A stretch of DNA of 53,250 bases from a virus. Its lineage: Duplodnaviria > Caudoviricetes. Each line of letters begins with the position of its first letter. The first letter of the stretch is position 1. Under the pieces are notes generated by a model that saw nothing but the letters and a program-made list of their open reading frames with translations, made no database searches and was not told the DNA's origin. Positions 1,315-6,280 of this stretch are shown here, piece after piece. A program made the translations under genes and the position numbers. The stretch lies in the IMG/VR virus record IMGVR_UViG_3300027672_001250, positions 1 through 53,250 of that record. One strand, given 5' to 3'.

Positions 1315-1361
1315 ATAGCGTAATATAGCAGTTTGCTTATTACATAACCTAGGAGAAGAGT

Positions 1362-1643
1362 ATGAATAGATTATTCAAAGCTCTTGTAGTTTCTGGGTTT
1401 GTTATATTTTTACCATCGTGTGCCTCAGTTGGAGCAGTTATCGAGGGTGGAAAGGCTTTTACAACAGGCGTAATAGATGGATCAGTTAATGCAGTTAGCA
1501 CAGTTAGTGTTGCCGTATTACAGGACGCATCAAGCATTGCGACTACTGCGGCAACTATTGCCTCTAATACAGTAGAAACTGTTGCTAATGAAGTAGACAA
1601 ACAAACCGACGAATTGCAAGACACTCCAGAAAAAAAGGACTAG
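1362..1643 (+). CDS. Small lipoprotein, 93 aa, with a probable -1 frameshift extension to 1753
   Basis: AGGAG RBS; signal peptide ending in lipobox-like LPSC; A/V/T/S-rich helical body; ends on a slippery GAA AAA AAG GAC TAG. Confidence 0.8.
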   Translation: MNRLFKALVVSGFVIFLPSCASVGAVIEGGKAFTTGVIDGSVNAVSTVSVAVLQDASSIATTAATIASNTVETVANEVDKQTDELQDTPEKKD

Positions 1644-1674
1644 GCCTATTCTCTGATCGCAAAGAGAATAAGGC
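1631..1674 (+). other. Programmed -1 ribosomal frameshift signal
   Basis: In-frame A_AAA_AAG (1631-1637), spacer GACTAG, then hairpin GCCT-ATTCTCT/GATCGCAA/AGAGAAT-A-AGGC (1644-1674). The -1 frame is open to TAA at 1751-1753. Confidence 0.7.
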
Positions 1675-1755
1675 AAGTAATGATACTGACATTAAAATGC
1701 TAATAAAGCAAATTAGGTCATATTGTTCACAAAATCCTTTGGAGTGCGAATAACG

Positions 1756-1784
1756 AAAAGGGGCAGGCAACTGCCCTTTTTTTT
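1756..1784 (+). terminator. Intrinsic terminator
   Basis: GGGCAG-GCAA-CTGCCC followed by T8, immediately after the -1 frame stop. Confidence 0.9.
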
Positions 1785-1799: not shown

Positions 1800-3857
1800 A
1801 TGAAATGGTTACTAAGCGGTTATGCCGTAGCAATAAGTATTATTCTACTAGCGGCATTAAAGATTGCTGATCCTACACCAATACAAAGTTTACGCAGTCA
1901 AACATTCGATGCACTGCAACAATTAGACGAAGTTAAGCAAAGCAACGAAGTTGTTGTGTTAAACATTGGTGAACAAAGTTTACAACAGTGGGGACAATGG
2001 CCATGGCCAAGACAGAACATAGCACAACTAGTATCGGATTTGAGGAGCAAGAACGCTGGAATAATTGGTTTAACAATTATGTTTCCAGAAACGGACCGAT
2101 TTGGCGGGGACGCAGTTTTGTCAAGTTGGATGTCGGACAACGGAGTGGTTTTGTCCCAGACCCCATCTTCCAGAGGAATAAAGAGTACAGGTCCTCACAT
2201 TGGTACAGCAACGATAGGCCCAGTATCCGCTACGGACTACTTGCTGACATGGCCGAATCTCGTAACGAATATTGAAGTACTAGAGAAGTCAGCGGCAGGC
2301 ATAGGTGTAGTAGCAAGTGCTCCGCAACCAGATAATCAAACAAGAACTTACCCTCTAGCAATCGGAGTAGAGGGAAAGATATATCCTAGTTTTGCTATTG
2401 AGATGTTAAGAGCTCACACAGGTAAGCCTAGCTACTATTTAAAGACTAGCGAAATAGGAATACAAGAATTTGCTGTACCGCCGTTTGATCCAATAATAAC
2501 GACACCCGCTGGCACAGCATATATACGTTTTAATAACACGTTTGAAGAATACGAATACATTACAGCGAGTGAACTACCTGACTTAGGTGGAAAGTTCGTA
2601 ATTGTGGGTGTTAGTGCAGAAGGCGTTGCTAATCCGGTACCCACACCCAGAGGCAACGTATTACCACAGCTTATACAAGCGTCTATGCTACAAAACTTTA
2701 TAGACGGGAGTAACATTACCAGATCTGAACTAGCGTTGCTTACAGAGCTTCTGTGTGCGTTATTAGGCATGCTACTAGTGGCTTTGTCGATCTATAGATT
2801 GCCTATATGGGCAGGATTAGTTACTACAGTAAGTATTATAGGCGGAATGGTATATTACAGTATACATTCTTATACTGCAAACTTAGTTTTATTTGATGCT
2901 ACATATCCTGCAATAGCAACATTCTTAATATTTACACAGGCAAGTTTTAATAACTTTTGGGTACAGTTTAAATTACGACAAGAAATACAAAAACAATTTG
3001 CCGGTTACGCTTCACCTACAGTTGTTAGAATGTTGCAAGAAAATCCAGACTTAATCAAACAAGGCATGAAGAAAGAAGTTAGTATATGCTTCTCAGATTT
3101 GCGTGGCTTTACTCCACTAGGTGAGAGCTTTGGCGACGATGTGCAAGGCTTAACAAAAATGATGAACGAGTATATGGATGCTATTACGCAACCTATACTT
3201 GATGCAGACGGTATGGTGATTAAATATATCGGCGATGCAAGTATGCACATACACAATGCTCCTATGGACGATCCGGATCATCCTAAGAGTGCAGTGCAAA
3301 CAGGCATACAAATGCTCAGGGCAGTAGACCAGTTCAATGATAAAATTGTTAAAGAGGGCAGACCACCCATTGGTATGGGTGCTGGTATTAATACTGGGCT
3401 CGGTTATATTGGGGAAATGGGCTCCACTGCAAGACACAGTTATGACATACTTGGAGACGCAGTTAGTACCGCGGCAAGAATAGAAAGCAAGTGCAAAGAG
3501 TATGGGTGCTTATTACTTGTAGGTGGGGACACATACAAGCATACTAAGGACGATTTCTTTTATCTAAAAGTAGATGACTTGCAAGTAAAAGGTAAAAGTG
3601 TTGGCATAGAAATATACACTGTACTGGATATTAAGCGAACTAAGTATGTTAAAGGCAAGCAACTACACGCACAGATGCATAAACATTATCGTAACCAAGA
3701 CTTTGATAAAGCAATCAAATTATGTAATCAACTATCTAAAACCTTTGATGGAAAGATGTGTGGCTATTACGACATGTGGATTGAACGTTGCGAGTTTCAA
3801 AAGACACAAGACTTGCCAGTTGATTGGAACGGCATTATGATTGCCACAGGCAAGTAG
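1800..3857 (+). CDS. CHASE2-domain class III adenylate/guanylate cyclase
   Basis: N-terminal TM; CHASE2 motifs (GQWPWPR, MFPETDRFGGD, DNQTRTYPL, VPTP); 3 TMs; cyclase motifs FSDLRGFT, KYIGDA, GINTG, YDILGDAVSTAARIES. Confidence 0.93.
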   Translation: MKWLLSGYAVAISIILLAALKIADPTPIQSLRSQTFDALQQLDEVKQSNEVVVLNIGEQSLQQWGQWPWPRQNIAQLVSDLRSKNAGIIGLTIMFPETDRFGGDAVLSSWMSDNGVVLSQTPSSRGIKSTGPHIGTATIGPVSATDYLLTWPNLVTNIEVLEKSAAGIGVVASAPQPDNQTRTYPLAIGVEGKIYPSFAIEMLRAHTGKPSYYLKTSEIGIQEFAVPPFDPIITTPAGTAYIRFNNTFEEYEYITASELPDLGGKFVIVGVSAEGVANPVPTPRGNVLPQLIQASMLQNFIDGSNITRSELALLTELLCALLGMLLVALSIYRLPIWAGLVTTVSIIGGMVYYSIHSYTANLVLFDATYPAIATFLIFTQASFNNFWVQFKLRQEIQKQFAGYASPTVVRMLQENPDLIKQGMKKEVSICFSDLRGFTPLGESFGDDVQGLTKMMNEYMDAITQPILDADGMVIKYIGDASMHIHNAPMDDPDHPKSAVQTGIQMLRAVDQFNDKIVKEGRPPIGMGAGINTGLGYIGEMGSTARHSYDILGDAVSTAARIESKCKEYGCLLLVGGDTYKHTKDDFFYLKVDDLQVKGKSVGIEIYTVLDIKRTKYVKGKQLHAQMHKHYRNQDFDKAIKLCNQLSKTFDGKMCGYYDMWIERCEFQKTQDLPVDWNGIMIATGK

Positions 3858-4496: not shown

Positions 4497-4919
4497 TCAG
4501 GAATTTACTTCTAGAATTGTGTGAATCTTTTCGGCACCTTTGTTTCCTATTAGCGTAACTTTTGCGCCAGTGTGCAACGGAGTAGGCCACCAATCAATAT
4601 CAACCCAGCAGTAACCTGCACTTTCGTTATTTAATATAGGTGAGAATTCTGTGTCTACTACATATATAAAACTGTAGTAAAAAAACTTTTTGTCTTTGCT
4701 TTGGAATATATCTATAGGATTAAGTTTTTGAAGTTGTGGTACAAATCCAATTTCTTCGTTGAGTTCACGCTGAATGCATTCGAATGGTGTTTCCGATTTA
4801 TGCATAGTGCCTCCCCAGAAGCCCCATGTGTTCTTAAATCTTTTTTCAGCTTTTCTTAATTGAAAAAGACATCTACCTGTGTCTTTAGCAAGAAATAAAA
4901 CTCCTGCTGCTGTAGTCAT
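4497..4919 (-). CDS. Nudix hydrolase
   Basis: Complete Nudix box G-TMHKS-E-TPFECIQ-RELNEEIG. ATG 4919 has a GAGGA RBS. Confidence 0.9.
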   Translation of the reverse strand: MTTAAGVLFLAKDTGRCLFQLRKAEKRFKNTWGFWGGTMHKSETPFECIQRELNEEIGFVPQLQKLNPIDIFQSKDKKFFYYSFIYVVDTEFSPILNNESAGYCWVDIDWWPTPLHTGAKVTLIGNKGAEKIHTILEVNS

Positions 4920-4930
4920 TTGCTTTCCTC

Positions 4931-6280
4931 TTAAAGCAACAAACGCCAAAACCCTGTGTTGTAAACACCTTCGTGACTGCTAACCCACGATTCGTTGTAC
5001 CATTTGTATTGCTTAGTTGTGTATGTGTTTGTAAGATACTGTAAATCAGTAGTAGCAATTGCATCAAATACTACAGTCCATTTGGTTCCGTTGTACTGTA
5101 TGATGTCATTTTCTTTTGCTTCGATATCCCAATTAGTGTATCCTGCCTTAGTAATTGTTTCTGTGATTAAGTATCGCTGACCATCTGCTGCGGCAGCTAA
5201 TGCCCCATCCCCCGGGTAAGTTGCTCGCGGGTCTAATATTTTATCTACGTTAGTTAATGTGTCAGCTGGCAACGTCTCCGGATCAATATTGAATACTAGT
5301 TTTGTGTCATCTAGTGTATTAACGGAAACACTTCCTATAACAGCATCTAAGTCGTTGTCGCTGTCATTGGTAAGATTTAATTTAAGTTTACTTGTAGTTG
5401 TTAACTTACCTTGCATTTCAATTAAGTCTGCCCACTTAATGCCGTTGTATTGTTTATCTAATAACACAGCACTAGCACCGTCAATCTGTAATTTATAGTC
5501 ACCGGGCGTAGTAACAATTTCAGCAACTTCTGGTACAGTTGAGAAAAAGTCTGCTAAGTCTGTACTAAATCCTAGATCTTCGAGGTTGTTGGTTTCGTGC
5601 ATGTCTGTGACAATGCGTTGTATAATTGTTTGCTTTTTAACTTTAGCAGGCGGACTAATCCAGATAGGTACTGCAAAACTCATTGTTGCAATGTCTAAAG
5701 ATTCATCTACCCCTTGCGGTATACTTCTGCTACTCCATTGTACGTCAGTTAACTCAACTTCAAATACATTACTCCAGTCTAACGGATTATCATTTGACTG
5801 TAATTGTATATTAGGATTAAACAATATCATTAACTGTTCTAATATTTGTAACTTAGTATCAGTGTTTGTAGTCCATACATCTACTTGCAATGTTAAGTTA
5901 TACGGCACAGGCATATAACGCTGTACAGTATACAAGTTACCTTGCCCTGTTTCGTATTGGCCTGTATCTGTGTTAAATTCTCTTTCTGCTACCTGCTGAG
6001 TACTAACAAAATTTGGTTCATGTATTCTATCTCTAGCAACTTGTAAACTTTGTATGCTACATGCAATAAAAGGAGCACTTGCAATAACGTTCTCTGAATT
6101 ATTACGCAGTATTTGTGCAACCATTCTGCTTTGGTCAGCATAACGGCAAGGTACAGTGTTATAGTTTACACCGTTAGATGTATTTTCTGCTACTTGAAAG
6201 TTAGAAAATATCCTGATAAGTTGTTGCAAGTATCTTTTAACTTGCCCATCATACCAGTAATCTAAGTTTTTCTTTGCCAT
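4931..6280 (-). CDS. Tail completion / sheath terminator protein (T4 gp15-like N-terminal domain) with C-terminal extension
   Basis: YWYDGQVKRYLQQ, PVPYNLTLQVDVW, LQILEQLMILFNP patterns of gp15-like proteins. Confidence 0.7.
   Translation of the reverse strand: MAKKNLDYWYDGQVKRYLQQLIRIFSNFQVAENTSNGVNYNTVPCRYADQSRMVAQILRNNSENVIASAPFIACSIQSLQVARDRIHEPNFVSTQQVAEREFNTDTGQYETGQGNLYTVQRYMPVPYNLTLQVDVWTTNTDTKLQILEQLMILFNPNIQLQSNDNPLDWSNVFEVELTDVQWSSRSIPQGVDESLDIATMSFAVPIWISPPAKVKKQTIIQRIVTDMHETNNLEDLGFSTDLADFFSTVPEVAEIVTTPGDYKLQIDGASAVLLDKQYNGIKWADLIEMQGKLTTTSKLKLNLTNDSDNDLDAVIGSVSVNTLDDTKLVFNIDPETLPADTLTNVDKILDPRATYPGDGALAAAADGQRYLITETITKAGYTNWDIEAKENDIIQYNGTKWTVVFDAIATTDLQYLTNTYTTKQYKWYNESWVSSHEGVYNTGFWRLLL

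Follow-up and report, generated by a model that had tools for sequence, protein, structure and literature searches.

We report here that a small lipoprotein gene of an uncultured virus very probably yields two proteins through programmed -1 ribosomal frameshifting, a reading to which we give a probability of roughly 0.86. The gene lies near the beginning of a DNA stretch of 53,250 nucleotides (IMG/VR record IMGVR_UViG_3300027672_001250, positions 1 to 53,250; hereafter the window). It ends with an in-phase slippery heptamer, A_AAA_AAG, which is followed by a short spacer and a hairpin, and the -1 frame that opens at the heptamer encodes 38 additional residues. A previous examination of the letters of this stretch (the sequence-only reading) had proposed that a short and a long lipoprotein are produced from this gene, the long one with a C-x6-C motif, and the comparative tests described below support this proposal. 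Comparison of sequences allowed us to demonstrate a signal (heptamer, spacer and hairpin), to show that the -1 frame cannot be entered otherwise and to detect selection at the protein level in that frame. The features of the locus are the following:

1351-1355, plus strand: Shine-Dalgarno-like AGGAG, 6 nucleotides 5' of the ATG (direct reading of the sequence)
1362-1643, plus strand: 0-frame open reading frame (ORF) encoding the short form, a lipoprotein precursor of 93 amino acids, TAG included (ORF calling)
1362-1421, plus strand: predicted signal peptide with lipobox L-P-S-C, the codon of Cys20 being 1419-1421 (sequence pattern)
1631-1637, plus strand: slippery heptamer A_AAA_AAG in X_XXY_YYZ phase (direct reading)
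1638-1643, plus strand: spacer of 6 nucleotides, made of GAC and the 0-frame stop TAG at 1641-1643 (direct reading and fold)
1644-1674, plus strand: candidate stimulatory hairpin of 11 base pairs with an 8-nucleotide loop and one bulge (RNA fold)
1637-1753, plus strand: -1 frame extension, 38 codons and TAA at 1751-1753 (translation)
1721-1747, plus strand: codons of the motif Y29-C30 ... P34 ... C37 in the -1 frame (alignment of 25 tails)
1755-1784, no strand assigned: predicted intrinsic terminator hairpin, G+C core 1760-1776, with flanking A-run and T-run (RNA fold)

The ORF, the slip site, the spacer, the hairpin and the 38-residue tail were all found where the sequence-only reading had placed them. 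The last codons of the 0-frame ORF are CCA GAA AAA AAG GAC TAG. A -1 frameshift signal requires a stimulatory structure 5-9 nucleotides downstream of the slip site, and here the 6-nucleotide spacer leads into the 11-base-pair hairpin, in which 1644-1654 pair with 1663-1669 and 1671-1674 around a bulged 1670. The 40 nucleotides starting 3 nucleotides past the heptamer are more stable than 99.2% of the other 40-nucleotide windows in the first 6 kilobases of the window. The 166-nucleotide stretch as a whole has a folding z of -5.05, with none of 200 shuffles equally stable. When stop-to-stop ORFs of at least 80 amino acids were inspected on both strands of the 53-kilobase window, the lipoprotein site held the sole in-phase A_AAA_AAG, and none of the 7 copies of AAAAAAG located in stop-to-stop ORFs of at least 100 amino acids was in slippery phase.

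According to the mechanism that we propose, most ribosomes would end at the TAG (1641-1643) and yield the 93-residue precursor. A fraction of them would pause over the hairpin 1644-1674 with two Lys-tRNAs on AAA AAG, slip back one base on A_AAA_AAG and read the 38 further codons of the -1 frame, giving a precursor of 131 amino acids. Its tail would consist of a linker encoded over the hairpin, an amphipathic helix and a Cys-x6-Cys loop, laid out in the extension as Y-C-x3-P-x2-C.

A scan of IMG/VR with a back-translated pattern returned 99 relatives, of which the best 80 were taken and analyzed together with the window (81 loci). In all 81 loci an in-phase X_XXY_YYZ heptamer ends 0 or 3 nucleotides 5' of the 0-frame stop, and the -1 frame is open onward from this heptamer. 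In 49 of them A_AAA_AAG is directly followed by TAG, in 24 one codon separates it from the stop, and in 7 the heptamer is G_GGA_AAG directly followed by a stop; the remaining locus, L032, has two overlapping heptamers. Conservation of the heptamer was one of the checks suggested by the sequence-only reading, and the heptamer is either kept or swapped for another slippery heptamer in every one of these loci. The -1 frame opens just 7 nucleotides 5' of the 0-frame stop in many loci, which therefore leaves no other place for the shift.

Two more scans were seeded with P0115, a database protein lacking the terminal Lys-Lys, and added more distant relatives. Pooling of the three scans gave 207 locus rows, with contigs recurring between scans, and these were reduced to 74 distinct loci after leaving out 2 rows with truncated genes and 3 rows with tails running off the contig. 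Heptamer and -1 tail with [YF]C-x6-C are both present in 61 of the 74 distinct loci and both missing in 13, without a single discordant case, and the heptamer is in phase in all 61 distinct tail-bearing loci. To follow this co-occurrence we used a maximum-likelihood tree of 55 distinct mature proteins (75 columns; two G_GGA_AAG rows were dropped by the lipobox pattern). The state with neither element requires 3 changes on this tree and well-supported branches force at least 3; one such locus, L163, falls inside a clade of A_AAA_AAG-TAG genes and another, L197, is the sister of L023. Because the tree forces at least three changes, heptamer and tail were lost or gained jointly several times. The loci with G_GGA_AAG are spread over more than one part of the tree, and the two heptamer types replace one another.

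The variety of heptamers bears directly on transcriptional slippage, according to which RNA polymerase would add one A on the A-run and the long protein would arise from the edited mRNA by normal translation. AAAAAAG is found in 52 of the 61 distinct tail-bearing loci, where it gives runs of 6-7 A (7 in the window), and the RNA available at contig level is compatible with a minor population of transcripts with one additional A, as contigs hide rare variants. However, the 8 distinct loci with G_GGA_AAG have no homopolymer longer than 3 and display the same architecture in more than one part of the tree, and efficient transcriptional slippage usually requires runs of about 9 or more. Moreover, codon phase is irrelevant to a slipping polymerase, whereas the X_XXY_YYZ phase is respected in 61 of 61 loci, the hairpin 5-7 nucleotides downstream (38 of 43 segments) has the geometry of a ribosomal stimulator, and the RNA contigs of two studies keep the genomic number of A. 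We consequently regard slippage of the polymerase as highly improbable.

The hairpin was then compared between relatives. Stems begin 5-7 nucleotides past the heptamer in nearly all lineages even if their sequences differ from one lineage to another. When each of 43 distinct downstream segments was set against the remaining 40-nucleotide windows of its own locus, 34 segments exceeded 95% of these windows in stability and 38 exceeded 90%. Covariation in the stem, another of the suggested checks, was addressed with RNAalifold on 12 group-A sequences, which returned the same 11-base-pair stem with compensatory changes at 4 of the 11 pairs.

Selection on the tail was measured as the ratio of non-synonymous to synonymous differences per site (pN/pS), using Nei-Gojobori counts on codon alignments of 14 group-A and 19 group-C sequences. 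For group A, the tail region had a pN/pS of 0.34 in the -1 frame, as compared with 1.06 and 1.50 in the two remaining frames; for group C, the values were 0.27 in the -1 frame and 0.77 and 2.03 in the others. In the 30 codons upstream the low value belonged to frame 0, with 0.35 (0.75 and 1.50 in the other frames) for group A and 0.28 (0.93 and 0.91) for group C. As the low pN/pS moves from frame 0 to the -1 frame, the phase of selection shifts by one base at the heptamer, and the tail is constrained in its -1 frame as strongly as the upstream gene is in frame 0 (0.27-0.34 versus 0.28-0.35). Across all 25 diverse tails compared, two Cys and one Pro never vary, and the Tyr or Phe that precedes the first Cys is nearly invariant. 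The coding-type conservation that the sequence-only reading had suggested testing, in particular that of the two Cys, is thus present.

These data also allowed us to weigh the possibility that no recoding takes place, the -1 ORF being either an independently initiated small peptide or untranslated and its conservation being due to RNA elements of the 3' untranslated region (hairpin and terminator). In line with this, gene callers annotate only the protein of about 90 residues, two small proteins found elsewhere (P0147 and P0149, described below) carry the module with their own Met, and the linker overlaps the conserved RNA stem. But no ATG, GTG or TTG lies between the upstream stop and the heptamer in any of 53 distinct -1 ORFs; 10 of the 53 have no start codon anywhere in the tail, and elsewhere the first one comes 4-38 codons into it. 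Independent initiation can therefore not explain the conserved tail. RNA elements, for their part, would have to account for a low pN/pS that is specific to the -1 frame, with values of about 1 or more in the others, for invariant Cys, Pro and Cys far 3' of the stem, and for the perfect co-occurrence of heptamer and tail (61 with both, 13 with neither, none discordant). An explanation without recoding is in our opinion no more probable than polymerase slippage.

Since A-runs are error-prone, we also asked whether an indel introduced into the homopolymer by sequencing or assembly, or recent breakage of the gene, could hide a true gene made of a single 131-codon ORF. One protein, P0146, does read through in frame. 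It has, however, a second frame break near its end and therefore probably results from a homopolymer sequencing error. Two metatranscriptome studies provided RNA contigs, spanning 1331-1763 and 1308-1770, that have no indel in the A-run, and a DNA contig covering 1300-1795 has none at the slip site, these DNA and RNA contigs stemming from 4 runs. One RNA-contig difference lies within the tail (1684 T>C) and does not alter the amino acid read in the -1 frame. Many independent assemblies, amounting to 188 locus rows and 61 distinct loci, show the same frame structure, including the 8 G_GGA_AAG loci without a long homopolymer. We also found 140 homologues of the lipoprotein in protein databases. 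Among the 120 listed, nearly all have 87-100 amino acids, the longer ones that we examined are N-terminal over-calls, and none is a clean in-frame fusion. The assembly artifact that the sequence-only reading had named as a way to refute its proposal is thereby excluded for practical purposes, and we leave this explanation only a residual probability, well below those of the two others. None of these 120 listed homologues carries the tail, and current annotation therefore misses it.

Several observations weigh against programmed frameshifting. First, the lack of a clean in-frame fused form among the 120 listed of 140 protein matches, which speaks against an indel, also means that no homologue in that set joins body and tail. 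Second, the C-terminus of P0093 (99 amino acids, one contig) departs from the family just 5' of the slip site and resembles the +1 frame; this protein either carries an indel or belongs to a lineage in which the region is arranged differently. Third, the tree is poorly resolved, with 16 of its 52 inner branches open. Fourth, a Shine-Dalgarno-like upstream stimulator of the dnaX kind is absent from 30 of 35 distinct upstream contexts; the 4-mer was found 6-14 nucleotides 5' of the heptamer in the 5 others, the window not being among them. Fifth, 5 of the 43 distinct segments (L082, L201, L023, L196 and L200) have no notable hairpin at the usual place. Sixth, the stem encodes the linker of the tail, and the amino acid conservation of the linker may therefore in part reflect the RNA stem and not protein function. 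Finally, frameshifting could be a very rare event, or one so frequent that most of the protein made is the long form.

Frameshifting of this kind has well characterized counterparts. E. coli dnaX, which encodes tau and gamma, uses the identical in-phase A_AAA_AAG with a stem-loop about 6 nucleotides downstream and also makes two products with a common N-terminus from one mRNA. The shifted product is nevertheless shorter in dnaX, where the ribosome stops almost at once, and longer in the phage lipoprotein; the Shine-Dalgarno-like enhancer located about 10 nucleotides 5' of the dnaX slip site is the element missing from most lipoprotein contexts, and the gene families are unrelated. The closest match in layout is T7 gene 10A/10B, where ribosomes that slip into the -1 frame a few codons ahead of the stop add a short C-terminal tail to a minority of the molecules, all of which have the same body. 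In this case the protein is a capsid protein and the slip sequence is another one, whereas the phage lipoprotein would be exported and is not a known part of the virion. Insertion sequences of the IS3/IS911 type share A_AAA_AAG with a 3' structure, but there the shift fuses two large ORFs (orfA-orfAB) into a transposase in a different biological setting. The tail chaperone frameshift of lambda G/GT takes place on G_GGA_AAG (Xu et al., as related in passages of PMC10885494). The same heptamer is used by 8 distinct lipoprotein loci, and in both systems the ribosome slips at the extreme 3' end of the upstream ORF, the protein is extended and the signal is kept across many diverged phages. The differences are that the lipoprotein gene is not a tail gene, that a downstream hairpin is the rule in the lipoprotein family, and that the extension has 31-55 residues in the lipoproteins versus a whole domain of more than 100 in lambda.

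The mechanism is in itself classical, being of the same kind as in dnaX, IS3 and lambda G-GT, and we found no description of it for this kind of gene. A full-text literature search returned no publication that reports frameshifting in the gene of a phage lipoprotein. In the main text of the Melnitz paper (PMC9004378) and in that of the pelagimyophage paper (PMC7029224), the words 'frameshift' and 'lipoprotein' have 0 occurrences, and the passages of the PRFect paper (PMC10885494) that we consulted contain no report of a frameshift in a lipoprotein gene.

Conserved phage recoding sites are known mainly from tail chaperone and capsid genes, and the present site belongs to the gene of a small, presumably exported lipoprotein with a wide distribution among uncultured marine T4-like and jumbo myophages. 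In every record among the 120 listed, gene callers have cut the gene short. The family is also an unusually clean comparative case, with two interchangeable heptamers, a structure kept despite sequence drift, and lineages with neither heptamer nor tail that serve as natural controls. It thereby offers a ready test case for frameshift predictors and a reason to seek junction peptides in marine metaproteomes. In addition, it defines an unnamed Cys-x6-Cys module that is found in other secreted and tail proteins as well.

The body shared by the two forms has the features of a bacterial-type lipoprotein in terms of sequence pattern: a basic N-terminus, a hydrophobic stretch and an [LVI]-x-[GAS]-C lipobox with an invariant Cys. 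Cys20 and the residues following it are invariant in 26 of 26 aligned sequences, with V-G-C, Q-S-C and A-S-C as lipobox variants, and Cys20 is presumably lipidated. The mature body is predicted to form one long helix of about 70 residues, with modest confidence (mean predicted local distance difference test score, pLDDT, of 68). It is built of 11-residue repeats with a hydrophobic period of 3.65-3.7, and the short form ends with Lys-Lys-Asp. A trimer prediction of the mature body scored 0.01, a value that counts neither for nor against oligomerisation. As a small lipoprotein with one long helix and Lys at or near its end, the body is reminiscent of Braun's lipoprotein Lpp, an analogy that concerns the body only. 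It differs from Lpp by its 11-residue repeat and period of 3.65-3.7, as opposed to the heptads of the trimeric Lpp coiled coil. We considered and rejected membership in the Lpp family: the window protein has no Pfam match and none of 26 family members matches any Pfam lipoprotein family.

Searches with the 93-residue protein by tblastn against 50,697 named phage records gave no match, and a pattern scan of 185,579 prokaryote species genomes gave 86 pattern matches, none of which was a relative. No credible family was found for body or tail in Pfam, PHROGs or NCBIfam; the single match of the family searches was phrog_27316 (E 0.0034), a family of unknown function. The ESM Atlas returned the family's own viral clusters and a lead to DUF6726 at 0.89, which is below the trustworthy level.

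For the tail, AlphaFold2 run on the tail alignment predicted a helix at residues 7-32 followed by a closing turn, with pLDDT values of 92-96 for residues 21-38. A profile of the tail was searched against 1.84 billion representative proteins and gave 11 matches at an E of 0.001 or below. Six of them are fragments of the family's own -1 ORFs, one is the above-mentioned fused reading P0146, and the four others carry the loop in ordinary frames. Among the latter, P0147 and P0149 are small Cys-loop proteins, each with a Met of its own. P0150 and P0151 carry a signal peptide and three and four tandem copies, respectively, of [YFW]C-x2-[NH]P-x2-C-E. A word-based search for longer proteins with the tail profile, in which 8,000 candidates were scored, had P0141 as its one match. 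In this 176-residue fragment the first 120 residues match the C-terminal part of a tape-measure protein (phrog_37649, E 4.8e-11) and the last 43 share 60% identity with the L200 tail. As only 8,000 candidates were covered, this search is weak evidence for the absence of fused forms. The occurrence of the loop in frame in other predicted proteins argues that the tail is a real and portable protein module.

The Cys-loop thus looks like an unnamed periplasmic module. Pfam, NCBIfam and PDB searches gave no name for it, and sequence searches of solved structures with the tail profile and with P0151 gave matches at chance level only. CP12 proteins are C-terminal Cys-loop regulators that are common in marine cyanophages, and CP12 was considered for the Y-C-x-x-N-P loop. 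We rejected this assignment, as none of 25 tails matches Pfam CP12 even at an E of 10 or below; the repeat protein P0150 has a sub-threshold CP12 match (E 0.16).

End-of-gene frameshifts in T7 10A/10B, lambda G/GT and dnaX fix the ratio between forms that assemble together. By analogy the lipoprotein would be required in both forms, probably as parts of a single assembly in which the signal determines their ratio. Both would be exported, and the two Cys of the long form would be joined by a disulfide in the periplasm. We tentatively picture a stalk anchored in the envelope, a set fraction of which would bear a small binding head closed by the disulfide. It can be imagined, as an unlikely elaboration, that the Cys-loop tail is a portable periplasmic binding module with which the frameshift decorates a fixed fraction of the stalks, serving as a decoy for, or a blocker of, an envelope partner needed by incoming tails, in other words a superinfection exclusion whose dose is set by recoding.

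With regard to the genome, the window is a 53-kilobase fragment of an uncultured virus. It carries a gene for a T4-type tail sheath stabiliser, and among named phages the nearest relatives of this protein come from jumbo myophages such as PA5oct and Phosso (36-39% identity). A NUDIX hydrolase gene (4497-4949, minus strand) adjoins the stabiliser gene, an arrangement shared with PA5oct-like jumbo phages. In the window and in L008 the lipoprotein gene lies between a curlin-repeat/FecR module and a CHASE2 cyclase, a module known from phage Melnitz; in L008 the FecR-domain and curlin-repeat proteins are encoded at 854-2897, 5' of the lipoprotein gene. In L024 the gene comes after the scaffold and major capsid genes, and in L034 it is found between the DNA polymerase and UvsX genes, behind two small membrane-protein ORFs (2516-2909). 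The lipoprotein gene therefore behaves as a self-contained cassette that occupies varied neighbourhoods in marine T4-like and jumbo myophages. The association with a periplasmic-sensor cyclase, put forward when the locus was first read, holds in the window and does not generalize. Indeed, a cyclase is directly downstream in only 15 of the 71 loci with enough downstream sequence, and the link is therefore local at best.

The cyclase gene of the window (1800-3857) encodes a CHASE2 sensor fused to an adenylate/guanylate cyclase domain and shares 73% DNA identity, over 855 bases, with its counterpart in Methylophilales phage Melnitz. There the cyclase comes after curlin-repeat and FecR genes and not after this lipoprotein gene. 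The cyclase gene of the window contains the sole in-phase G_GGA_AAG of the window, at 2372-2378, where the -1 frame is open for just 3 codons; a slip there would cut the protein short after the first part of CHASE2, and this heptamer is probably due to chance.

An Rfam search of 1200-1900 gave no match at threshold. The intrinsic terminator had been placed 2 nucleotides past the -1 stop. This is correct for the extended stem with its A/U pairs and not for the G+C core, which lies about 7 nucleotides after the stop. The fold spans 1755-1782 with the T-run after it, and a separate terminator scan put the terminator on the minus strand; being flanked by an A-run and a T-run, the hairpin should be able to act on both strands. 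The RNA contigs of the two studies stop within the terminator, at 1763 and 1770. We did not use these ends as evidence of a transcript end and take them only as a weak hint of terminator use, because the DNA contig breaks nearby as well, at 1795.

A scan of 1150-1900 found no sigma-70 promoter. By eye only, we spotted a T4-late-like GATAAATA at 1307-1314, about 50 nucleotides 5' of the ATG, with one mismatch to the T4 late-promoter motif TATAAATA; the RNA contigs start at 1308 and 1331. Further upstream, the window begins with a 5'-open ORF (2-409) that has relatives in 18 of the 81 loci and no Pfam match, and whose end is overlapped by a small Cys-rich ORF (381-602) matching DUF1289 (E 1.6e-17). 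Two small predicted membrane-protein ORFs (781-990 and 950-1291) then precede the lipoprotein gene. Relatives of ORF 781-990 are found in 44 of the 81 loci, which suggests a conserved three-gene cassette.

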